Shown piece after piece: positions 448-20,876 of a stretch of DNA of 20,876 nucleotides. The position numbers and the translations under genes are program-made. Source of the DNA: Macrostomum lignano (lineage: Eukaryota); NCBI GenBank assembly GCA_002269645.1, contig NIVC01005216.1, forward strand, positions 1 to 20,876, in the 5' to 3' direction. The notes under the pieces are model-generated. The model was not told where the DNA came from. It ran no database searches and saw only the letters and a list, made by a program, of their open reading frames with translations. Within the stretch, counting starts at the first letter, position 1. Each line of letters opens with the position of its first letter.

Positions 448-894
448 TTACATAGACTTCATTGAAAAAGGCAGAGATCTGGCAGGGTACCGCATACCTT
501 CCATTTTAGCATCCGAGCGAAGGCGGAAACTCGCAAGAAATCGGTCGTTTGCATCGCGCACAACTGGTAGGCAAAGGACGTCTTTAGAAATGCTACTATC
601 GAAGTGCAATAGGTTTAGGCGCGATAGGAAATCCATGCCGAGAATGGCCATCGAATCGTTTCCAACATAGACATGTCCAATAGCGTATCTTCTGTCAGAC
701 AGAGTAATGGTTGCATCCGGAATGACTGAATATATGGTGGGCTGAAAGCCACCGTAGGACCTGAGCATTTTCGAAATCGGTTTGGATGGTAGATTGGAAA
801 TATCGGCAACATTCTTGGGTATAATGGTAACTTGACTCCCAGTATCCACTAGCATCTTAACGCTCGATCTCCGATCTTGCAGGTAGCAAACCAC
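448..894 (-). pseudogene. pol: Retroviral-type aspartic protease region of gypsy gag-pol
   Basis: VKMLVDTGSQVTII catalytic motif and AILGMDFL flap-end motif. Confidence 0.88.
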
Positions 895-2664: not shown

Positions 2665-3417
2665 AGTAGAAGGCATGAGGGGGCTTCTGGGACAAAATTT
2701 TTCACCTCCTCCATAATCCACCTAAATCCATCCATATTATCCCCGACAGAATCAGAAAAAAAGGGGGGTCGCACTCGCTCACAAAACATCCTCCATAATC
2801 CCATTAAATCCATCCATATTATCCCTGACAGAATCAGAGCATAACAGGTGTCCTAGTTGCTCCGAAAACTTCGAACATAATCCCATTAAATCCATCCATA
2901 TTATCCCTGAATCAGAGCATAACAGGTGTCGCACTCGCTTACAAAACTTCGAACATAATCCTCCTAACCTATCCTCCTTCCTCCACGACAGAATCAGAGC
3001 ATAGCAGGTGTCCTACATAATCCACTGACATCCACCCATAGCATCTTCGAAACAATCAGAAAACAATCTGTATTCTTCTCCACACATTCAATTCGCAATT
3101 CGCTACGCATCCCAAAGACTTTGAATCCCCTAACCCAGGGTCCTTACCCTTTGAAAAAAAAATTAAATTTTCTCTAAAAATGTTTCCAGTTGTCTCTCCG
3201 GGTTCTTATTACAAAGCGCACGAGCCTAATTACAAGAGTAAGTACCGATGCAAGAAGGAATGCAGCGAGTACATGAGAAAATATTGGCCCAACGTTGATA
3301 TCAATGTCCCTAATATTAATCTAGCTCTCCAAAGACATTAGTTTCATAAGTATGGAGTAACCTATGTAAAAGATTACGATAGCTACTATAACTTTGCAGA
3401 AATCATTAGGCAATTGT
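2665..3417 (+). repeat. Left terminal inverted repeat (753 bp)
   Basis: Reverse complement of 19828-20522. Homology runs from AGTAGAAGG to ...AGGCAATTGT, with substitutions and indels. Confidence 0.93.
2711..3070 (+). repeat. ~80-bp modular minisatellite inside the left TIR (about 5 units)
   Basis: CATAATCC(CATTAAATCCATCCATATTATCCCTGACAGAATCAG) recurs at 2711, 2793, 2876, 2954 and 3016. The last two units are degenerate. Confidence 0.85.
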
Positions 3418-6867: not shown

Positions 6868-7245
6868 ATGCCGATTATTTTTGAGAAAGACGTGACAAAT
6901 ACTATGACAAAGAGGAACTTAATCTCATTAAACGCGGATCTGGACTTTTCCCTGCAGGCCACTATCCAAGAAAAGAACGCTCAGGGAACGGTCTTGCCGA
7001 TTTGATCGCTCAGGGGGCCAAGATTTTTAAGGTCATTGGAGAGAACAAAGAGAACATCAAGAACGTTGCCGAAGCGGCTGGCAGTGTAGCCACAGCAGCC
7101 AAAAAGATAAAGGATACTGTAACACCTAAACAAGAGATTCAACCTCCACTGGCCCCGCTGGCCCCAAACCAGACAGTGTGGACCCTGCAGTCTATGAGAA
7201 GATGAGAGCAGCATTAAAAAAGGAAGTGGTTTCAAATTTGACTAA
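6868..7245 (+). CDS. Small putative virion protein with GxG motifs and an amphipathic helix (protein VI-/cupiennin-like, tentative)
   Basis: Repaired: MPIIFEKRRDKYYDKEELNLIKRGSGLFPAGHYPRKERSGNGLADLIAQGAKIFKVIGENKENIKNVAEAAGSVATAAKKIKD...ALKKGSGFKFD*. Needs 3 repairs; with 2 repairs it ends at 7282 instead. Confidence 0.6.
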
Positions 7246-7276: not shown

Positions 7277-7435
7277 AAATGACACATCTAAGTCCCAAAA
7301 TGACACATTAAGTCCAAAATGACACATCTAAGTCCCAAATGACACATCTAAGTCCCAAAATGACACATCTAAGTCCCAAAATGACACATCTAAGTCCCAA
7401 AATGACACATCTAAGTCCCGAAATGACACATCTAA
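7277..7435 (+). repeat. 21-bp tandem repeat AATGACACATCTAAGTCCCAA, ~8 copies
   Basis: ATGACACAT at 7279, 7300, 7319, 7339, 7360, 7381, 7402 and 7423. Confidence 0.95.
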
Positions 7436-7473: not shown

Positions 7474-8272
7474 ATGGACTTTTCAAACGACTTCAATCCT
7501 CACTGGACGCGTAATCAGATTAAGTTTTCTCATCATGAGTCAATCCCGAGTCACTTCAGATGCATTGTTGTTGGTTCATCAGGTTCAGGTAAAACATTCA
7601 GAGTCTTTAACATGCTTCTTAGACCTGGCTTTATCGACTATGACACTCTGCACATCTACTCTCCCACACTGTATCAAGATGAGTATAAAATGCTGATTTC
7701 TGGATTGCAAAACAAACTGAACAAAGAGGACATTATTCATGTTTTAATAACCAAAAATCCTTCCCAGTAACCCAGAAATTGTAGCTGCTGAATATGCAAA
7801 GCACCTCAAAGACAATGAAAAATGGCAGAACATTAAAGTGTTCACCTATGGAGATCCACAGGCTGATCCAAAGACCAAACTTCTACCCCAACCAGATGAG
7901 CTAGAAAAGGGGAGAAAGCATTTGATCGTCTTTGATGATTGTATGACAGGCCCACAGAAGCAGATAGAAAACTATTTTACAAGAGGGCGACATAACAATT
8001 GTAATGTAATTTACATTGCACAGAATTGGTTCGAGCTCCCGAACAAAACAATTCGTGGGAACTGCAATCTGATTCTCCTGTTTCCAACCATTCCACAGGA
8101 CAGGTTAAAAAGATTTTACAATGAGGTCATTGCGCCTGCCTATTTCATAAATCCAACAAAAAACTCAAGCAGAAAGATTTCACAAGAGGAATTCGTTAAT
8201 CTTTGCTATGACAAGTGGAATCAGCCTTACCAGTTTGTGATTATCAGCAAAGAAAAAAGAACTGTAATTTAA
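7474..8272 (+). CDS. ATPase: A32/FtsK-HerA-type DNA packaging ATPase, ~266 aa after 2 repairs near 7745-7775
   Basis: Walker A GSSGSGKT, Walker B HLIVFDD, FTRGRHNN motif, IRGN. Start at tagaaaaaATG 7474. Confidence 0.93.
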
Positions 8273-8288
8273 AATTTGCTATTAAAAG

Positions 8289-9107
8289 ATGTCGATAAAC
8301 TTTGCAGGTGAATCCATTTCTGGCAACAGCGCTCTTACATCAGCTCAGATATCCATCCTTGACAGGCGATATATCAACAGCGACGAAAAGATCCCAGAGA
8401 TCAAACTGAATAAAAACAGACTGAAAGCCCTAGAGCGCTCCATGCACCAGTTGCAAATAAACATGGAAGATCTCAGGCTTAAAGTAGCTAGGCAGAAGTT
8501 TGAAAGTGATAAGCTTTATGTGCCGTTGTTAAACGCAACTAATGAACTAAGGTCAGAAATAACTTCGATAGTCTCGCTAATCAACGGCTTGAGATCATCA
8601 GTTAATCTTCTGGGAAATTCCACTGATAGACGGATGCGTATTCTTGAAGGAGGAGTTTTCACAAACACAGCTAAAGTAAATAATTTAGAAGAGTTCATGA
8701 ACCAGTCAACAGCGTTGCATGATAGAATTAAAGAAAACGTCGCAACCAACACAGTTAAAGTCAATAATTTAGAAGAGTTCATGACTCAGTCAACATCGTT
8801 GCATGATCGAATCAAAGAAAGACTTGAAGCATTAAAGAGAAAGGATGTATCACACAGTAGCTATCTAAACGGAATGTATAGCTCTTGGGGTAAAATAATA
8901 AGGAGGCTTGATCGTCTGGAGAGAACACTCAATCTTCGTGATATTGCTATTGATGAAGCAGAATCTGCTGCTCGTCCGGTCATGTCTACAGATCGAGTAG
9001 AAGGAGCTCTGGACCCCGCCGGAGTAATCCGGCACGCTCTCAAACGTCAGCCGCCCAGCCGCTGCCTGCTGGACTCGCGATCCTCCGGCGTCACGAGAGC
9101 CGCCTAG
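8289..9107 (+). CDS. Coiled-coil, fibre-like hypothetical protein (272 aa) with an internal 28-aa duplication
   Basis: Uninterrupted ORF with heptad-like L/I spacing. TNTAKVNNLEEFMNQSTALHDRIKE and TNTVKVNNLEEFMTQSTSLHDRIKE are 84 nt apart. The fibre role is inference only. Confidence 0.75.
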   Translation: MSINFAGESISGNSALTSAQISILDRRYINSDEKIPEIKLNKNRLKALERSMHQLQINMEDLRLKVARQKFESDKLYVPLLNATNELRSEITSIVSLINGLRSSVNLLGNSTDRRMRILEGGVFTNTAKVNNLEEFMNQSTALHDRIKENVATNTVKVNNLEEFMTQSTSLHDRIKERLEALKRKDVSHSSYLNGMYSSWGKIIRRLDRLERTLNLRDIAIDEAESAARPVMSTDRVEGALDPAGVIRHALKRQPPSRCLLDSRSSGVTRAA

Positions 9108-10347: not shown

Positions 10348-13300
10348 CTAAACCCAATATCCACCTCCTAAACCTAATCTCCAATGCCCGAACGGTAGAC
10401 TGTTGATATTGTCATCAAAAATGAATCTCTTGTTATCTGCACCTGACAGTCCAATCTTCTTTTGCTGAATTGTGTGAATAATATGGTTTTTAGATTGTAG
10501 CTTTGAGAACTCATGTGATGTCTTTTTGTTGCAATTCAAGGCGTCTCTGTATTCAGCTTCATTAATTTCCTTCCTAACCACACGTTTCGGAATTCCCTTT
10601 GATTTTTTAATTGGGTCTGACGACTCACATTTTACAAAATAGGACTTTGCTCTCAACCCAATGAATTCAGTGATTATGTCACCAGCAATCTCGTCCTTCA
10701 TTTTCCCAATCACTTTCTTGTTAGTGGCGTCAAACACTTGATCGCCATTCTGTGTCCTGCAAGATTCATCATACTCAGACAAGTCAAACAAATCTTTTTG
10801 CTGCAGCATGTCCTGATAAATGTCTTCTGTTTGAATGTCCATAATAAAACTGTCTGTGTCAGTGTACAAGAGTTTCATTTTATCCTTGTACTGCTGCTTC
10901 ATGCCATAGAAGAACTGGTACATCAGACGTTTTGATTCGTCGAGAACAGTGACACCTGTATAGATCGGCTTGCGCAGCGTCACCTTGGTTTTGTAAAATA
11001 TGATCACACCTAAGTAGCTATTAAAGATATGGAGTTCTTTGAATGTTGGCTTTGACATATTTGCCTGAATAACAGCAGGCTCTGATGAGGTAACAAGTTT
11101 CAGGTTTGTTCTTTTCCGCTCATTCTCAAGAGTCTTGCCATAGACAGAGTTGTTGGCCAACTTAAAGAGGTTCTTGTCAAAGTCGTTGGTTGCTTTGGTC
11201 CTAAACTGGGTGTTCTTATCAATGTAGGGTTTCATCCACGCTTCCTCTGTAAATGTAAGAGCCCTGTGAACTTTGGTGACCCTGCAACCAAGTGAGATAA
11301 AATACTGAAGCAGTTTGTAATGGATTTTGTAACGTGTCTTGTTGTTTAGATTCTGTGTTAGTTTCTCTGTATGTTCTTTTTCTGTTCCTGACAGGTGCCA
11401 AGTTCCATTATTATCATTGGGAGTTTCGATTATTTTCGGGCACTTGATGTTCTCTGGGAAGGGTGGAAAGTCAGAGAAATAGTCGTGAAGCTCTGGTGGA
11501 ATGTAAACATCAACCTCATAAATGGCAGCCAATGAAAAGTCCCATTTGAATTCTGATGAGGGTAGCCATCGAAAATCTCTAACTGGAAGATCTTGACTCA
11601 TCGCCCACCCGTAGAGATTATTAGCGTCCAAGTAAGTAATGTAGTTTGAGGGCTGCTCCTTATTGTAAGATTCAATGTAGGGATTGTTTGCTTTTGCATA
11701 CCTGTTAACGCAAATTGAGATCCCCCTCGCTTTGACGATTCGACAAAATTGTACATGTCAATGTCTGTAAGAAGTTCAATGTACCAATCTGGATCTTGAT
11801 CCCATTTCATTTTAAGCAAAGATTCCCAGCTAGTGGCAGGCAGAGACACATAATGTGCTGGATCGAGGCCATATGCTGTGTACCAGGTGTATCTGAAGGT
11901 TTCAAACACATCGGCCAGCAGAAACACATCTGTGAAGAGGTAAAGCAGGTGATACTGGAAGAAGTTTTGACAATTAAAGTAATTATAGACATGCTTCGCG
12001 TGCTCATAGTCTTTGTCAGAGATTCCAGAGTCTGTTAGCTTTGAAAAGAACTTCTCCTGTGGTGGTAAACCTTCTTCAAATACGTGATACCCAGTAATAT
12101 TTTCATAGGGGTAGAAGCCTTTCTTTCTTAAGTTTAAATGATTCATCACTGTTGTTAATTTTACTTGCAAACATCTTTGTATATGTACATTGTTCATCTT
12201 TTAGATTCTTGCTTAGTTCGTCTAGACTGGCAGCTAGAAATTGATATGAATCCTTCAGTCTTATTTTACCTGTACCCGAATTATCCTGTTTAATATCAAC
12301 ACACTTAAACTTCTCCTTGTTCTCTGCGATGCAATCAAGGTGTATGTCTGGAATCATGCCGATTTTTTCAACTATTAAATGCATGTCATAGTTCTTTGCG
12401 TTGTGACAAAATATCGTTAGATCATGAATGTTCGATTTTAGCTTTAGATTACAGGTGTTATGCGCTGCACCTCTAAATTTCCCAGTAAAGTGGCAGTGGT
12501 CCCTAACGGTGGGGTTTTTAATATTAGTGCAAGTTAAATGTTTCCTGCAGATGTGGCAATGAGTTGCTGATAGGAAATTGCTTTCATCCTCCTCAGTCAT
12601 CATTATTGGAACAGGTTGAAGGGTGCTAATCACTTTTTGCAACTCTAACATTCTGGCAATAAACTGCTCCACACACTGCTCTCCAAAGAAATAATTATAC
12701 TCAACAAGTCCTTTTGTATTAATAAAGGCATATGCTACTGAATTGGGGACATGTTTTTGAGTTTGAGTTTGAGTTTTTGAGTTTTTGGCACGATTGAGCA
12801 TTCGAAATCAGCATATACAACAAATGGGAGCTTCTCCATCTTGTGATAGTTCTTAAACCGGAGATACTTCTCTTCAGCTGAAGGAAGAGAGCAGTTTGTC
12901 GGGTGATCCTCGCATGATAATTCATGCTCTGTAGTTTTTCAAAGCGTTCAGGTCCACTGTAATGCTTAAGGCACAAGCGGCAGATGGCAACAGCCTCGTG
13001 ATGATTATTCAACTGCTTGTGAATGAGTCTTGAAAGATCTTTAATCCAAACATAGTGAGCCTCCTCTAGTAAATTACCAATCACTAGAAGATCCACTTCA
13101 GTCCGCCTTTTCCCCTCAGGATCTAAAACGTCTTTGCTACATCTGACCGGTTGAACTTTCTCAGTTTTTTCACTCCACTCAAAGACTGTGATTCTAATTT
13201 TGTTATTAAACACTTCTTCTAGCTTTGGGATCTGAGAGATCGCCAAGCCTCCTTTGTCAAACCTGATTCCCTTCTTTTCGCATTCGATGAGATAGTAGTT

Positions 13301-14768: not shown

Positions 14769-15787
14769 TTAATTAATTTCTGTGTCAGCTGGTATCACTA
14801 GGAGTTCAGCTCTAGTGAATGACCGCGTGGGGGATTTAGGGTTAAAGGCTGAGATAAAAAGTAATAGTCACCGAGTCGGAGGTAAAATGTCTGTCTATTT
14901 TATGTACATCAAGGCTGAAGTATGGATCTGTAGCTCTTCTTTTGGTGTCTTCTCTAGCTCTCCAGGTAGATATAAAAAGCGTAGAAACTCAGAGTTTGTC
15001 AGTATGTATGGTGATTCAACTCCTGGAAGCTTAGGGTAGTTCGAGGTGTGTTTTGTGTTGTGTGTGTTGTGTGGGGTTGTCGTGTTGTTGTCTGTTCTAT
15101 GAGATGCCTTAAGTTCGACAGTGTCTTGTTTAATTGCATGGGACGGTTTCAATCCAGTCATGCGTGTGACTTCATTGTTCAGTTGCTCTATAACAGTGGG
15201 GAGTCTTTCTGTCCACTTGGTATAGTACTGCCCGCACTCAGTTTGAGTTCTTGCGCTGTCTGCTTAGTGAATAGCCTCTTGGCTAGAGTTAGATTGAATC
15301 TTTCCACAAAAGCCTGGTCTCTGTGCAAGTTTGTTCTGCCATAGCGAATCTCTGTATTTTTCTTTTCCATAAGGGATTTCACTGCACCCATGAATTCCTT
15401 ACCCGGGTCGGTCATAAAGATTTCGGAGAGTTTTTATAAATATCTTGCAGTGCGCTGGCAACAACCTCTGACTTCTTCGTCTTGAGTGGGCGAGCTTCCT
15501 TATATCTGGAAGCAATGTCTGTAATTGTAGAGCATACTTGTAGCCTGAGTCATTGGGGAGAAACAAAAGATCTGCTTGGTGCGCTCATTAGGTTTATAAA
15601 TACTGAAATGGGGCCTTTCAAATTTTACTGGTGGGAAATAGACTTGAAAGACAGCCTGCTTAGAGAGCCATTTTTCTACTGTAGCTTTTGGTTCCTTACT
15701 CAGCTCCATGAGTTTACTAACGGCATTTTTGCCTACAAAGAATCCTTTGTCGCTGTAGTAGAGTTTTTTAAGTTTCTGATCTGTCAT
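14769..15787 (-). CDS. INT: Retroviral-like (rve) DDE integrase, about 6 apparent indels
   Basis: LKKLYYS, HQADLLFL (D), MTDPGKEF (D), QAFVERFNLTL (E), KRRATDPYFS, and C-terminal RSFTRAELLVIP. Confidence 0.92.
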
Positions 15788-15817: not shown

Positions 15818-16258
15818 ATGCAACGCTCTGGTGGTAAAATAGATTCACATGGACTGATAGAAAAGCTTCCTCATCCAAACAAAGGCTGGACACTTCCCGG
15901 CTATAAATATTGCGGGCCTTTGAATCCACTTGAAATACAGCTGGATGGAAAAACAACCAAATCCTGGGCATGAGCCTGTGAACGAGCTAGACTCTGTCTG
16001 CATGTGGCACGACGTTAAATATAGAGATTTTCCTGAGGAGAAGAATCGCTGGGACAAAGAAATGCTTAGGAGACTCGACAATATGGGGATTTCAAGCGGA
16101 TTTCGTGAGTCGATTGCTAGGAAATTAGTCAAGGCGTTATTTTTAGTAAGGCAAAGTTGGGATTAGGAATGGCGCTGAGGGTGGGTGCACGGGAGAGAGG
16201 GCGGACGCACTTTATTTTGTGTGCTCCAAACAATGAATTAGAAGACTGGGGCTGTTGA
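15818..16258 (+). CDS. Parvovirus VP1u-type phospholipase A2
   Basis: Ca-loop LPGYKYCGP, PVNELDSVCMWHDVKY (HD catalytic), WDKEML, VKAKLGLG after repair. Without the second repair it ends at 16166. Confidence 0.88.
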
Positions 16259-16598
16259 GAGAGGCGCTTGAGTCGGGAAAGATTATTCGCAGCCAAGCGC
16301 AACAGCTGCATTTCGAAAAGGGGTGGGGTAACTGCTATTTGCTGAGGGAGCGCAGCTTTTGCGAATGTACAAGTTCCACGCGTGCTTTCCTTTCCTTTCC
16401 TTTCTTTCCTTTGTATTGCGCACGCCAAATAACGAATTAGAAAGACTGCTGAACAGTTTACATTGATAAACAACTGAAAGACTGAAGCGACAGATTATAG
16501 TCGCTATATAGTTTATTAGTTTATTATAGTTTTTCATGTGGTAAGCAACGTGGCAACAACAGAGCATGCAGCAGAAGACAGAATGCCTATCTTAGGTA

Positions 16599-16904
16599 AA
16601 AATAATAATAATTGATTACACCTGCCCAATGGGCAGATGTGCAACCGACAGCTCAGCCGCAGCTATTGCGCGGCGCATCTGAAGGCTGCGTGCGGCTGTT
16701 CAGTCCAAGGACTGGGGGTCGCCACACACACCCTCAATTACTCCAGCTAATGCTGGTACCCATTTTACAGCTGGGTGAACTGAAGCAATGCGGAGTAAAG
16801 TGCCTTGCTCAAAGACACAGATTGTTGCAGGGGGATCGGGAATCGAACCCCCAACCTTCATTTAAGTCGTGAGTCCGACGCCCTAACCACTAGGCTACAA
16901 CCCC
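16599..16904 (-). mobile_element. tRNA-derived SINE with a CORE-like central domain, inserted inside the Polinton
   Basis: A box TAGCCTAGTGG (16897-16887), B box GGTTCGATTCC (16849-16839), then GTGTCTTTGAGCAAGGCACTT...CCCAGCTGTAAAATGGG (MIR/CORE-like) and an (ATT)n tail at ~16600-16613. No TSD found. Confidence 0.82.
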
Positions 16905-17046
16905 GTATGTGCAGGGTCTAAACTATGCAACAATATAAAAGGTTTCTGGGTGAGCGCCTGCTTTTTCTCCCCAGTCCCACCACACTGAACACCCCGCCCA
17001 GTTCTGCCTGTCTCTTTTTTTCTAGCCTCCGCAACTAGTCAAACAG

Positions 17047-18563
17047 CCACCTCAGAAAATGAAACCGCTGGTTTCAAATTTTGAGGTGGGTGATCCTCTA
17101 AAGACGCTTGTGTCTTTCTTTTTCTAGCCTCCCAACCCCCCAGAGAGGGTCGGGGGGTCTGGGTAGACCAACTCTCAGGCCAGCCCTTCTCTCACCCGTC
17201 TTGCCCCACCGCCTCTCATTCCAAGCCTGTCCTCTGGGTGCCTCTCTTCGCAACTAGCTCTCTCTAAGCCTCCTAGTCAAACAGCCACCTCAGAAAATGA
17301 AACCGCTGGTTTCAAATTTTGAGGTGGGTGATCTGAGTTCTGCACTGCTTCTCTAGCCTCCGCAACTAGCTCTACGCTCTCCCGAGCTCATTCTATTTTT
17401 AGTCAAACATAACACTAGCGATCTCGCGCTGGGGGTAGAGGGGCGCCTGGGAATTTTGAGTCTCCCGTTGTACTGAAATCTCCTTCCCTTGAGCTCCTCT
17501 CCCTTTCCCTTCCCCAGCAGTCCGTGCCAGAGCATTGGGCTCTCTTTGCACAGGGGCGCCACCTCAGAAAATGAAACCGCTGGTTTCAAATTTTGAGGTG
17601 GGTCTACACTGCTGCGCTATCCAGTTCTCACCCGCCCTGCCACTCACTGCATGCAGTCCGCGCATTCCGCCACAAGTCCCCCTTCTCTCTCACCCACCCT
17701 CCCTCTGCAATTCACTTCTGTGCAGTGCAGCGCCAAAGCCAAAAGAGAATTGCAGAGGGTTGAGGGTTGATCCGGGCGGGAGGGGGTCTTTCTTTTTCTA
17801 GCCTCCACAACTAGCCGCTCCGTTTTCTTCTGCGCTCTCCCGAGCTTAGTCAAACAGCCACCTCAGAAAATGAAACCGCTGGTTTCAAATTTTGAGGTGG
17901 GTCTACACTGCTGCGCTATCCAGTTCTCACCCGCCCTGCCACTCACTGCATGCAGTCCGCGCATTCCGCCACAAGTCCCCCTTCTCTCTCCACCCACCCT
18001 CCCTCTGCAATTCACTTCTGTGCAGTGCAGCGCCAAAGCCAAAAGAGAATTGCAGAGGGTTGAGGGTTGATCCGGGCGGGAGGGGTCTTTCTTTTTCTAG
18101 CCTCCACAACTAGCCGCTCCGTTTTCTTCTGCGCTCTCCCGAGCTTAGTCAAACAGCCACCTCAGAAAATGAAACCACTGGTTTCAAATTTTGAGGTGGG
18201 TGATCTCTTCTATGCTCTCCCAACGCATGGTATGGGTTTTATTTTTAGAACTTACGTCTACACTCTACAAGGTACAACCTTCTGGTGATCCCTCCGTTTT
18301 CTTCTACGCTCTCCTAGTCAAACAGCCACCTCAGAAAATGAAACCGTTGGTTTCAAATTTTGAGGTGGGTGATCTGAGTTCTGCACTGCTTCCAGCAGAA
18401 ACATTTTTCTACACTGTCCCAAGCAAATTTGCTATTTTAATCAGACACCCACCTCAGAAAATGAAACCAGTGGTTTCAAAATTTGAGGTGGGCAATCAAA
18501 ATGGCATACTTGTTAAACAACCACCCCAGAAAATGAAACCAGTGGTTTCAAAATTTGAGGTTG
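17047..18563 (+). repeat. Array of 8 imperfect 43-bp palindromes CCACCTCAGAAAATGAAACC-NNN-GGTTTCAAATTTTGAGGTGG with variable spacers
   Basis: Copies start at 17047, 17285, 17559, 17858, 18157, 18326, 18449 and 18521. 17 of 20 stem positions are Watson-Crick. Confidence 0.95.
17559..18156 (+). repeat. Near-perfect 299-bp tandem duplication within the array
   Basis: 17559-17857 and 17858-18156 differ, as far as I can see, only by a +C and a -G in homopolymers. Confidence 0.92.
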
Positions 18564-18616
18564 GTGTCAATATTAGTAATAAAAAACTATCCAAGGATAA
18601 CTTGCTATTATTATAG
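18191..18616 (+). CDS. Possible 3' part of a repeat protein with VKQPPQKMKP(L/V)VS(N/K)FEVG units
   Basis: Open frame holding 3 repeat copies in phase (spacings 123 and 72 nt), with mostly synonymous repeat variation. It stops 43 nt from the convergent gene's stop. True start unknown. Confidence 0.4.
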   Translation: MRWVISSMLSQRMVWVLFLELTSTLYKVQPSGDPSVFFYALLVKQPPQKMKPLVSNFEVGDLSSALLPAETFFYTVPSKFAILIRHPPQKMKPVVSKFEVGNQNGILVKQPPQKMKPVVSKFEVGVNISNKKLSKDNLLLL

Positions 18617-18659
18617 CTTCATGAGTTGCTAAATAAACAATACATTGCTAATTTAAAAG

Positions 18660-19283
18660 TCAAAACAACAAGCCTTCGTCCACTTCCTGTTGCAGCATCG
18701 CAAGGGCCTCTGGCAAGTATGCAATCATCGACTTCAGCTTGTGCAGGGACATTGCAGATCTTTGTAGCACCGGATATTTCTCAGCTTGGTCAGCCAATTT
18801 CATCAGAAAGTTGGTCCACTGGCTGGTGAACGGTGCACGTCTTTTCAGCTCGTTGAACTGTTCCTTACTGAGAACCCGCTCCATTCTCAGAAAGATCCTG
18901 CCGAGCTGTAGGCCGTTTGCAAAGCCATGCTTACCATGCCGTTCAACTAGCTTATGAAGGTTGGCAATCTGTACAAGCACTGCGTCGATCGTAAATGTTC
19001 CCTGCGTAAATTCTTCTAGAGAATGCACTGGCACAGGCTCACTGTTGGTTTTGTAGGCCGTGCGCAACTCGTCCAGAGCCTTGCCGATTTGTAATTGCTT
19101 GTCGGTAGTTTTCGCTAGCCGTCCATTGATAGTTGGCTTCACGATTGGTGACCGAGCAATTGCATTGTATTTATCGGCCCAAACATTCCAGTTGTCGAGA
19201 TCTTTACTATAAAATACAGCCTTTATGAAGTTATCCAGATTTTGGATGTAAACGTTGTTGCCTGCTTGCATTTCTTCATCCAT
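18660..19283 (-). CDS. Hypothetical protein (207 aa), mostly helical, possible DNA-binding regulator
   Basis: Intact ORF, GCCATGG Kozak context, TATA and HSE upstream. GLQLGRIFLRME...F..L...FTSQWTNFLMKLA is loosely DUF3102-like by eye only. Confidence 0.8.
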   Translation of the reverse strand: MDEEMQAGNNVYIQNLDNFIKAVFYSKDLDNWNVWADKYNAIARSPIVKPTINGRLAKTTDKQLQIGKALDELRTAYKTNSEPVPVHSLEEFTQGTFTIDAVLVQIANLHKLVERHGKHGFANGLQLGRIFLRMERVLSKEQFNELKRRAPFTSQWTNFLMKLADQAEKYPVLQRSAMSLHKLKSMIAYLPEALAMLQQEVDEGLLF

Positions 19284-19400
19284 GGCAAGATCCAGAGATT
19301 AAGCTAGTCAAAAATAAGAAGTTGCTGGCTCAGCGAGTTGAGGCGGGGCGAGGCGAGGCGGAGCAGGCTGGGTGAGGCGAGGGGCGATGTGAATCGGCTG

Positions 19401-19408
19401 TATATATA
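19401..19408 (-). promoter_or_regulatory. TATA box (TATATATA) for the 207-aa gene
   Basis: Isolated TATA run in a GC-rich context, ~118 nt upstream of ATG 19283 and 40 nt downstream of the HSE. The sequence is symmetric, so direction is inferred from context. Confidence 0.6.
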
Positions 19409-19447
19409 CCATTGGTGTGGGCTCGGGAATCCACGGATTCTCTTTTT

Positions 19448-19481
19448 GTTCTAGAATTTTCTAGAATTCGAATTCTAGAAG
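19448..19481. promoter_or_regulatory. Heat-shock element cluster
   Basis: gTTCtaGAAttTTCtaGAAt gives four contiguous perfect alternating nGAAn units (19448-19467), plus another TTCtaGAA at 19473-19480. Confidence 0.75.
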
Positions 19482-19825
19482 GGAAACCCGCAGATTTTCT
19501 ACTTATAGCCAGTATTTTCTATTAATGGTTGATTGGGGTTGCCTGGAAAGATCTAGGAAGACTGCTAAAAGAGCTGGGGGTTGAGAAGGCTGGGGGTTTA
19601 AACAAGGAACTAAATGGGCGTTTCTGAAGCTAGGCAAGGGATCTTCTGAGCTAGTTAAGGCTTGAGCTGGGCAAAAGCTTTTTCTCTATGCTGCACAGCC
19701 GCTCGCGCTATGACAAGAAACAGCTGCCATACCCATTCGCTATCACCCACCCACACAGCAAAATACATGCGTAAAAATATATATTAATGCAGTCTTAAAG
19801 TCTTAAAGCGTATTGTAACGACATT

Positions 19826-20063
19826 CTACAATTGCCTAATGATTTCTGCAAAGTTATAGTAGCTGTCGTAATCTTTTACGTAGGTTACTCCATACTTATG
19901 AACCAGTGTCTTTGGAGAGCTAGATTAATATTAGGGACATTGATATCAACGTTGGGCCAATATTTTCTCATGTACTCGCTGCATTCAAGTTTGCATTGGT
20001 ACTTGGATTTGTACAATGGATTAGGCTGAGTATAATAAGAACTGGAGAGACAACTGGAAACAT
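19826..20063 (-). CDS. TIR-embedded small protein, right copy (two apparent 1-nt deletions)
   Basis: 238 nt versus 240 in the left copy. Repaired: MFPVVSPGSYYTQPNPLYKSKYQCKLECSEYMRKYWPNVDINVPNINLALQRHWFHKYGVTYVKDYDSYYNFAEIIRQL*. Confidence 0.6.
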
Positions 20064-20522
20064 TTTTATTGAGAATTTAATTTTTTTCAAAGGGTAAGGA
20101 CCCTGGGTTAGGGGATTTAAAGTTTTAGGGATCTGGTTTCGCCGCTTCGGATTGAATGTGGGCCCCATGGGAGAAGAATGCAGATTTTTTTTCTGATTGT
20201 TTCGAAGATGCTATGGGTGGATGTTGGTGGATGATGTCAGTGTCAGTGAGCATAACAGGTGTCCACTGTCTGATTCTGTCGGGATAATATGGATGGATTT
20301 AATAGGATTATGTTCGAAGTTTTCAGAGCAAGTGCGGCCCCTCCCCTTTTTCATGATTCTGTCAGGGATAATATGGATGGATTTAATGGGATTATGGAGG
20401 ACGTTTTGTGAGCGAGTGCGACCCCCCTTTTTTTCTGATTCTGTCAGGGATAATATGGATGGATTTAATGGATTATGGAGGACGTGAAAAATTTTGTCCA
20501 AAAGCCCCTCATGCCTTCTACT
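19828..20522 (-). repeat. Right terminal inverted repeat (695 bp), with 3 clear minisatellite units at ~20270-20480
   Basis: Reverse complement of the left TIR. Shorter because it has fewer degenerate repeat units. Confidence 0.93.
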
Positions 20523-20613: not shown

Positions 20614-20775
20614 TTAAAAAGTTAACTTACGCTTTTTCATAAACTGTAGCATCGCTTGTCTCTCAAGACGACGTTTTTTTCTTAGATTGACCACGCTTCG
20701 TAGATCGTAGCGACCGCGTTGCTGCTGCTGCTTCTTCTTCTTCTTCATCTTCATCTGCTGCTGCTGTTGTTGCTT

Positions 20776-20808
<33 letters not shown>

Positions 20809-20835
20809 TTCCTCCTCCTCCTGCTGTTGTTGTTG

Positions 20836-20874
<39 letters not shown>
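20614..20874 (-). CDS. 3' end of a polyglutamine ORF running in from the window edge
   Basis: Frame reads Q(n)EEEEQ(n)KQ(n)MKMKKKKKQQQQRGRYDLRSVVNLRKKRRLERQAMLQFMKKRKLTF*. Mixed CAG/CAA/GAG/AAG codons stay in one frame. Not in the ORF track. Confidence 0.55.

Positions 20875-20876
<2 letters not shown>
20719..20876 (+). repeat. Compound (CTG/TTG/CTT/CTC)n trinucleotide repeat
   Basis: Directly visible; it encodes the polyQ/K/E tract on the minus strand. Confidence 0.95.

Follow-up and report, generated by a model that had tools for sequence, protein, structure and literature searches.

A 20,876-nt stretch of Macrostomum lignano DNA (positions 1-20,876 of contig NIVC01005216.1, assembly GCA_002269645.1), which over its full length is the window analysed here, carries a decayed animal Polinton, and inside that element, between its inverted repeats, sits an array of eight 43-bp imperfect palindromes. 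In one plus-strand frame every 43-bp copy encodes the same short peptide, and beside the array an intact gene runs on the opposite strand. We tentatively favour the view that the array is a cluster of cis-acting dyad sites, most likely bound by the adjacent ParB/KorB-type (DUF3102-like) protein, and that it came from a small repeat-coding gene. The features on which the argument turns are the following (ORF, open reading frame).

17047 to 18563, no strand: eight 43-bp imperfect palindromes
17035 to 17046, plus strand: 12-nt flank common to copies 1, 2, 4, 5 and 6
16905 to 17046, plus strand: pre-array segment made of array modules and homologous to spacer 5
17558 to 18201, plus strand: 299-bp tandem duplication (2.2 copies, 99% identical) that creates spacers 3 and 4
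18212 to 18616, plus strand: 134-aa ORF with copies 6, 7 and 8 in frame; the copy 6 peptide is LVKQPPQKMKPLVSNFEVG
18632 to 18637, plus strand: AATAAA, 15 nt past the stop of the 134-aa ORF
18660 to 19283, minus strand: intact 207-aa ORF with an all-alpha model, whose C-terminal domain resembles the DUF3102/ParB/KorB helix-turn-helix

The units start at 17047, 17285, 17559, 17858, 18157, 18326, 18449 and 18521, and each is built of two 20-nt arms around a 3-nt loop, with 17 of the 20 arm positions complementary. A preliminary description of this stretch had given the eight copies, their extent, the arms and the loop sequences, and we recovered all of these; the loop is GCT in four copies, AGT in two, and ACT and GTT in one each. 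It was also right about the single G-U pair of the plus-strand stem, but what it called a 2x2 A/A bulge is an internal loop, which widens to 3x3 in copies 7 and 8. The dyad is far beyond chance, and coding alone does not explain it: copy 1, folded as DNA, has a z-score of -6.5 with none of 200 shuffles as good, and outside the array the window has no dyad with a loop of 0-8 nt and at least 15 of 20 positions complementary. Copy 8 folds as DNA no better than its own shuffles. The array is a single locus within the 17.9-kb element, with no further copy of the 43-mer on either strand of the window at up to 14 mismatches; a 32-letter pattern of the unit had no match in GTDB genomes, and blastn with the unit found none in phages and none in plasmids. 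A 13-nt exact match to the right arm at 7227-7239 (E 0.009 within the window), which may be chance, sits in another gene region and encodes a similar short peptide stretch there.

Each arm contains the motif TCA-N5-TGA, giving two sub-dyads per unit that lie 22 bp apart, and all three arm mismatches, as well as the change common to copies 7 and 8, fall within the N5 positions. These paired sub-dyads suggest an operator-like layout; secondary half-sites occur outside the array at chance level within the window. The three mismatched arm positions are invariant in all eight copies, while the substitutions at paired positions break the pair in three of three cases and none is compensated, so that the substitutions do not demonstrate selection for pairing. 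Seven of the eight copies have the same left arm, and the loop varies. Together with the 12-nt flank, which is diverged at copies 7 and 8 and absent at copy 3, the 43-mer makes a 55-nt block with only 0-2 differences among copies 1, 2, 4, 5 and 6. A nearly invariant block, diverged flanks and uncompensated stem changes together suggest either that the sequence itself is constrained or that conversion has kept it uniform. Such a pattern is compatible with a DNA site recognised by its sequence, with a mature small RNA or with inter-copy conversion.

The peptide frame has left a trace in the substitutions. Counted over a 57-nt block, leaving out the non-homologous flank of copy 3, nine of the 14 distinct substitutions are synonymous (4.1 expected under the null, P 0.006); the figure outside the loop is seven of 11 (P 0.009), and a restricted null with the invariant core removed still expects only 4.7 (P 0.016). 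In the other five frames, only the antisense frame that shares third positions comes near (P 0.05). The loop variants are compatible with the codons, the last loop base being an invariant second codon position, and the two changes that break the stem in copy 8 alone are silent in the peptide frame. Mismatches to copy 1 do climb along the array (0, 0, 0, 0, 1, 1, 3 and 5 for copies 1-8), as expected from the rightward decay of the repeats proposed earlier, but since the changes are largely synonymous in the plus frame, they need not mean lost function. Copies 6-8 are spaced in frame, their codon-position GC content resembles that of the element's genes, and the right end of the array, at 36% GC, has element-like composition. 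The chance that the 89 non-repeat codons of the 134-aa ORF are open is 0.004, uncorrected for frames and windows; a second AATAAA, at 18578, lies within this ORF. A search for homologues of the ORF in 27 candidates 73-235 aa long, in the PDB and in phages yielded none. The right end would on this evidence be the older, coding end of the array and not a dying tail.

Copies 1-6, by contrast with this terminal ORF, are all spaced out of frame (1, 1, 2, 2 and 1 modulo 3). A single decayed ORF spanning all copies was rejected on the frame count: the element's polymerase gene (polB) has about five breaks in 3.8 kb, and at that rate four separate shifts in 0.8 kb have a probability of about 0.003 by hand calculation. 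A -1 frameshift at an A-AAT-TTT heptamer was likewise rejected, as it meets an immediate stop. A coding origin of the array is thus supported by the nine synonymous changes in 14 and by the ORF that runs through copies 6-8 to an AATAAA, but coding alone is insufficient because copies 1-6 are out of frame and their block is nevertheless nearly invariant. At the start of spacer 1 (17102-17125) there is an in-frame, diverged echo of part of the repeat peptide, followed by a stop.

Spacers 1-7 measure 195, 231, 256, 256, 126, 80 and 29 nt. The range of 29 to 256 nt and the recurrence of three sequence modules, both reported before, held on measurement, whereas the picture of unlike spacers shortening steadily to the right is true only in part, because spacers 3 and 4 are one duplication: they differ by two 1-nt homopolymer indels, the other spacers share modules, and the lengths rise before they fall, with shortening confined to the last three. 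Two homologous spacer pairs are identical at 37 of 48 and 31 of 42 positions (74-77%) and a third at 33 of 34. Since the pre-array segment shares modules with the array and its alignment with spacer 5 indicates homology (identity in 37 of 48 columns, z 5.9), the repeated unit reaches left of copy 1. Of the six distinct spacer segments scanned, two contain a strong hairpin; the one in spacer 3 has z-scores of -5.2 on the minus strand and -3.3 on the plus strand:

17685 to 17775, minus strand: pre-microRNA-sized hairpin in spacer 3, with a copy near 17985-18075

The 207-aa ORF ends 96 nt from copy 8. Its protein had five matches among 1.84 billion representatives, of which four are true homologues; the fifth, P0123, was set aside as a repeat artefact, matching 12-fold within a protein of 2890 aa. 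Relatives of the family were found neither in phages nor by a word-index search, 16 pattern matches in GTDB gave no confirmed relative, a PDB sequence search returned only noise, and the full-length model had no Foldseek match in the PDB or a viral library. The C-terminal domain was modelled over 122 residues (pLDDT 80). Among the 50 PDB matches listed for it, seven cover at least 90 residues: Spo0J (1vz0; Z 6.3, root-mean-square deviation 5.6, 100 aligned), ParB-parS (6s6h; Z 5.7, 5.3, 93 aligned), KorB-operator (1r71; Z 5.7, 4.2, 95 aligned), two Raf1 chains, USP8 and a designed protein, the last two being unrelated. Searched by fold, the viral library places DUF3102 proteins second, fifth and fortieth, at E > 0.9. 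A DUF3102 profile was built from eight proteins, seven picked for spread from 25 plasmid matches plus a gene of phage LE1, and it scored two of the homologues above their decoys (P0125, 24.3 bits against a decoy maximum of 7.5; P0122, 6.7 against 4.6). In reverse, a profile of the 207-aa family scored five of the eight DUF3102 proteins at 13-19 bits. The single LE1 protein set against the family was not significant, the link being made by the eight-sequence profile; we regard the DUF3102/ParB relationship as moderate for the family and weak for the 207-aa protein by itself. ParB_N, the N-terminal domain of ParB, had no match in five family members at E ≤ 10, and a phage ParB used as control did match. 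The DUF3102 gene directly follows a ParA/AAA gene in six of seven Leptospira plasmid loci and in phage LE1, and this position is the slot called parB in the part of PMC4338851 that names the second gene of lcp1. The layout of the array has a possible parallel in LE1, where the DUF3102 gene ends within or against a 38-bp imperfect palindrome that overlaps it (L001:1534-1571; arms of 19 nt with 84% complementarity).

Two further features belong to the 207-aa gene.

19448 to 19467, no strand: four perfect alternating GAA/TTC pentamers, heat-shock-element-like
18238 to 18441, minus strand: poly(A)-like hexamers, ATTAAA at 18441 and AATAAA at 18243

The pentamers, which resemble the consensus of a heat-shock element, lie 39 nt upstream of a TATA-like box, TATATATA (19401-19408), on the strand of the gene, and a run of four such units was reached in none of 100 shuffles. 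GC-box-like runs lie at about 19340-19390, on the opposite side of the TATA-like box from the pentamers. The minus-strand hexamers would place copies 8 and 7, and possibly 6, in the 3' untranslated region of the 207-aa gene.

The surrounding element is bounded by terminal inverted repeats (TIRs), a feature by which Polintons are defined in the account of them that PMC11296320 gives.

2665 to 3417, plus strand: left TIR
19828 to 20522, minus strand: right TIR, 80-89% identical to the left one, with gaps

The two TIRs differ in 82-84-bp subrepeats and may derive from different copies. Polintons make a 6-bp target-site duplication; none was found here and the flanks differ, as for an old or chimeric copy. 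The earlier assignment of the array to a Polinton-type element was borne out by these repeats and by three genes: a protein-primed family B polymerase (PF03175 on two pieces, E ~2e-4, under the cut-off), an A32-like ATPase (E 7e-4) and an adenain-like protease (E 2e-3), the last two also under their cut-offs. The polymerase, whose gene is frameshifted, has 372 relatives at E ≤ 1e-20, the named ones being from animals such as sea anemone, coral and spider; the best are 42-47% identical, and no close sister element was found in a search that did not extend to the host genome. No match to a capsid family was seen, and four fragments at 14895-15787, which by their motifs we presume by eye to be integrase-like, had no RVE integrase match in Pfam. 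Decay is evident in the fragmented polB, ATPase, integrase-like and PLA2-like genes, the last being a parvovirus-type phospholipase A2 (PLA2)-like gene (15818-16166, plus strand) broken across two frames, with its domain above the Pfam cut-off. Between it and the array lies a tRNA-headed, ATT-tailed insert (about 16580-16904, minus strand), presumably resembling a short interspersed element (SINE); its Rfam tRNA score of 27.5 bits is under the cut-off, it has no flanking direct repeat of at least 7 nt, and an ARAGORN scan gave no tRNA genes. The probable gene starts at 7474 (plus), 9199 (plus), 14185 (minus) and 5593 (minus) all have the same signature, in which a T-rich run and TAG are followed by an A-run and ATG; for this element it is either splice-acceptor-like or a promoter feature. 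Elsewhere in the window we noted a 21-bp unit in 7.7 tandem copies (7277-7435), with an ATG in each, in frame upstream of the packaging ATPase start; an 84-bp in-frame duplication (8661-8820) within a 272-aa coiled-coil-like ORF; an Endonuclease VII-like stretch above the Pfam cut-off in the polymerase region (12439-12567, within the minus-strand ORF 12103-12801); a retrotransposon-type aspartyl protease in the left host flank (448-855, minus strand); and a CTG-type microsatellite in the right flank (20709-20876).

These observations, of which the synonymous pattern, the ParB/DUF3102-like neighbour, its heat-shock-like promoter and the acceptor phases discussed below are additions to the preliminary description, allow a rough proposal for how the array arose and what it may do. 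It would derive from part of a small gene whose product had peptide repeats, and copies 6-8, still in the peptide frame, would be the older and more diverged end. Duplication without regard to frame would have added copies 1-5 leftwards, and either selection on the site or inter-copy conversion would have kept them alike. Heat-shock-type induction of the 207-aa gene could then load the array under stress, and the loaded array might act as a switch of the operator or enhancer kind, or tether the linear genome after its excision. What we infer is that the 207-aa protein dimerises and binds DNA, that its site is the 43-mer, and what purpose this would serve.

Several points weigh against this proposal. 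All the statistics are post hoc and come from one copy of the element, and the synonymous signal is not significant within either group of copies (3 of 3 in copies 1-6, P 0.07; 6 of 11 in copies 7-8, P 0.08). The near identity of copies 1-6 could reflect a functionless recent duplication or conversion. Binding of the protein to the site is itself a prediction, drawn from likeness of fold and profile and from proximity. The 207-aa protein could be placed in none of the families of Pfam, NCBIfam or PHROG (E under 0.09 for the last), all its fold matches have Z < 8, which possibly marks a common arrangement, and Foldseek E > 0.6; on the DUF3102 profile it scores 6.2 bits, exactly the decoy maximum, and hhalign gives its family a probability of 31% (E 5e-4) against DUF3102. 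No ParA-like gene was seen among the 20 ORFs of the window scanned, and the TGAAAC half-site is absent from 19284-19827, upstream of the gene. As a parS site the unit was rejected: its half-site bases stand in the opposite arrangement, and the best 16-bp match in the window (12 of 16) lies outside the array. A binding site also leaves unexplained the pattern of acceptor phases, on which the alternative based on splicing draws:

17277 to 18368, plus strand: candidate mini-exons 17277-17327, 17518-17601, 17802-17900, 18101-18199 and from 18318

Here the array would be a spliced plus-strand gene whose symmetric mini-exons each encode the peptide repeat and end at the foot of the hairpin, with introns of 187, 190, 200, 200 and 118 nt and copies 6-8 as the last exon; we think this unlikely, though it is the alternative to which we give most weight. 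The mini-exons of 51, 84, 99 and 99 nt, measured up to where the hairpin ends, all divide by 3, and the peptide frame is the only one open in them. When sites nearer than 50 nt to the hairpin are disregarded, the highest-scoring acceptor-like site is in phase 1 and stop-free to the next copy in all five spacers (four distinct) between copies 1 and 6 (3000 shuffles, P 0.015), while on the minus strand the same spacers yield one acceptor site, which is closed. Acceptor-like sites are also enriched on the plus strand, with a density of 9.1 per kb where the genes of the element have 2.8 and shuffled sequence has 4.8 (P 0.02). Of five AAAATG sites directly preceded by a strong acceptor-like site, four probably mark starts of the element's genes. 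The synonymous bias, the terminal ORF and its AATAAA are compatible with splicing as well. The donors are the difficulty: a GT does follow each of copies 1-6, but scored against the donor consensus, the phase-1 donor is weak (four matches and three wobbles; three and two after copies 3 and 4), and the strong one (six and two) is in phase 0 inside the stem, where the hairpin would hide it. Moreover, two of the acceptors are the same module and so are not independent events, the score is a crude pyrimidine count applied post hoc, no homologue of the peptide was found, and third positions in the block differ at two sites at most among copies 1, 2, 4, 5 and 6, too few for selection at the protein level alone. 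There is a precedent in IR1 of Epstein-Barr virus (EBV), whose repeat units, as the section of PMC5686732 on them has it, each contain exons and a hairpin.

Without any function, the array might be a dead stretch of accessory gene or a host repeat, amplified by slippage and unequal exchange, and the 299-bp duplication may even be an assembly artefact. The decay of the element, the 80-89% identity of its TIRs, the missing target-site duplication and the SINE-like insert just left of the array agree with this, as do modules that resemble microhomology-bounded duplications and a left array part richer in GC (53% against 40%) and pyrimidines than the element; we nevertheless consider it distinctly unlikely, since the 55-nt block is kept while homologous flanks diverged, unpaired bases are invariant, the synonymous bias and acceptor phases are unexpected, and the right end looks like the element in GC content and codon-position GC. 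Slightly less likely again is a role as RNA, in which minus-strand read-through from the heat-shock-type promoter would yield ten hairpins, eight short and two long, as small RNAs or as decoys of double-stranded RNA sensors. The constant left arm beside a variable loop is what such a role would leave, the minus strand gives the better fold of the hairpin in spacers 3 and 4, and the minus-strand hexamers put copies 6-8 in a 3' untranslated region. But the codons allow the loop variation equally, none of the three stem changes is compensated, and a strong hairpin was found in only two of the six segments; with its 20-bp stem and 3-nt loop the unit would be a short substrate for Drosha or Dicer, the lower stem beats shuffled flanks in one of eight copies on each strand, and none of 26 weak Rfam matches reaches a gathering score. 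For the 43-mer, the small-RNA precursor cluster proposed in the preliminary description therefore finds no support in its canonical form. The least probable of the alternatives, and in our view very unlikely, is that the array serves not the viral neighbour but a host transcription factor, one of the interferon regulatory factor (IRF)/Blimp type, as its enhancer or decoy. The word GAAANNGAAA, which we take to be IRF-element-like, occurs 11 times in the window, always in the array (eight left arms and three times in a second module), and it owes its existence to just those bases at which the dyad is broken. The motif was chosen after the fact, however, and its absence outside the array means little, with about one occurrence expected there by a hand estimate of chance; pyrimidine tracts yield it easily, and the right arm lacks it and is equally conserved.

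We still prefer the cluster of protein-bound dyad sites. A version that joins it to splicing, with a heat-shock-induced ParB/DUF3102-type protein binding the eight-site array while the same 43 bases serve as spliced mini-exons, we hold to be improbable, a shade below the RNA role. If it were true, the locus would be a stress-triggered switch, at once DNA site, RNA hairpin and peptide, that wakes or tethers an endogenous virus. More generally, the locus bears on the activation of animal Polintons and the maintenance of their free genomes, and it offers a named protein, site and inducer. Were the ParB-like link correct, a prokaryotic partition-type domain would be paired with its own sites in an animal virus-like element; were splicing correct, the array would be a compact parallel to the repeated-exon leader protein of EBV. 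Our literature searches listed no animal Polinton described as having a palindrome array that is internal and codes for peptide, although figures and supplements of preprints may show such a case, and none with a ParB-like gene beside a palindrome array; no paper joined Polintons, heat shock and reactivation, and, judged by title, none of the three papers mentioning DUF3102 was on viruses.

Among known systems, several can be set aside. MicroRNA precursors have a stem of about 30-35 bp with a lower stem, and a canonical microRNA cluster was rejected for the 43-mer on its 20-bp stem and on a lower stem above chance in only one of eight copies per strand. CRISPR spacers are unique, of even length and match targets, whereas those here run from 29 to 256 nt and are homologous to one another, with no match in phages and none longer than 14 nt elsewhere in the window. 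The comparison with in-frame palindromic elements drawn earlier was apt in that the unit is in register with a peptide repeat. It does not extend to palindromic elements of the RPE kind, which are inserted in frame into unrelated genes; all copies here lie in one cluster, with none in the element's other ORFs. On the minus strand, the hairpin is followed after 8 nt by CTRR in five of eight copies, which recalls the 3' terminus of Helitrons (a 16-20-bp hairpin, CTRR and the end of homology, as outlined in the relevant part of PMC6544945), but a Helitron end was rejected: the hairpin is 43 nt, a T follows in one of the five, and homology runs past the junction.

The baculovirus homologous regions (hr), to which the array had been likened, are 2-8 clustered imperfect palindromes of 24-28 bp, AT-rich and at several loci, by the summary in PMC4535591. 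The analogy holds for clustered imperfect palindromes at variable spacing in a DNA virus, the hr being bound or mediated by a viral protein, but not for AT-richness or multiple loci: the array has 43-bp units in register with a peptide, and its 53% GC and single locus rule out identity with hr. Its candidate partner matches ParB/DUF3102-type folds, and no match listed was named IE1. ParB binds palindromic, often multicopy parS sites, a 16-bp palindrome in the passage of PMC7383237 concerned. The likeness consists in a putative helix-turn-helix gene of similar fold beside multiple palindromes, with six of the eight half-site bases in each arm; the locus differs from a parS system in having no ParB N-terminal domain, no ParA seen, a eukaryotic promoter and a linear, integrating element. 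EBV IR1, which encodes EBNA-LP, would share with the array repeat units with exons for a repeat protein and a hairpin without covariation, homogenised by conversion, again according to the account of it in PMC5686732, in which the units are 3 kb long and near identical and the hairpin lies outside the exons. The array has units of 72-299 bp and spacers that are unlike one another, its hairpin would itself form the exon, and splicing is predicted. Within the same virus group there are the palindromic repeats and the small repeat arrays of Polinton-like viruses and virophages, described in parts of 10.64898/2026.07.28.741278 and PMC11296320 and in a figure legend of 10.64898/2026.10.13.758929, and the non-coding RNAs of related viruses that a portion of PMC12220804 treats. 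In those accounts the Polinton-group repeats lie at or within the terminal repeats, their position being unstated in the legend, whereas the present array, with its eight peptide-coding units, stands inside the element at a distance of about 1.3 kb from the TIR.

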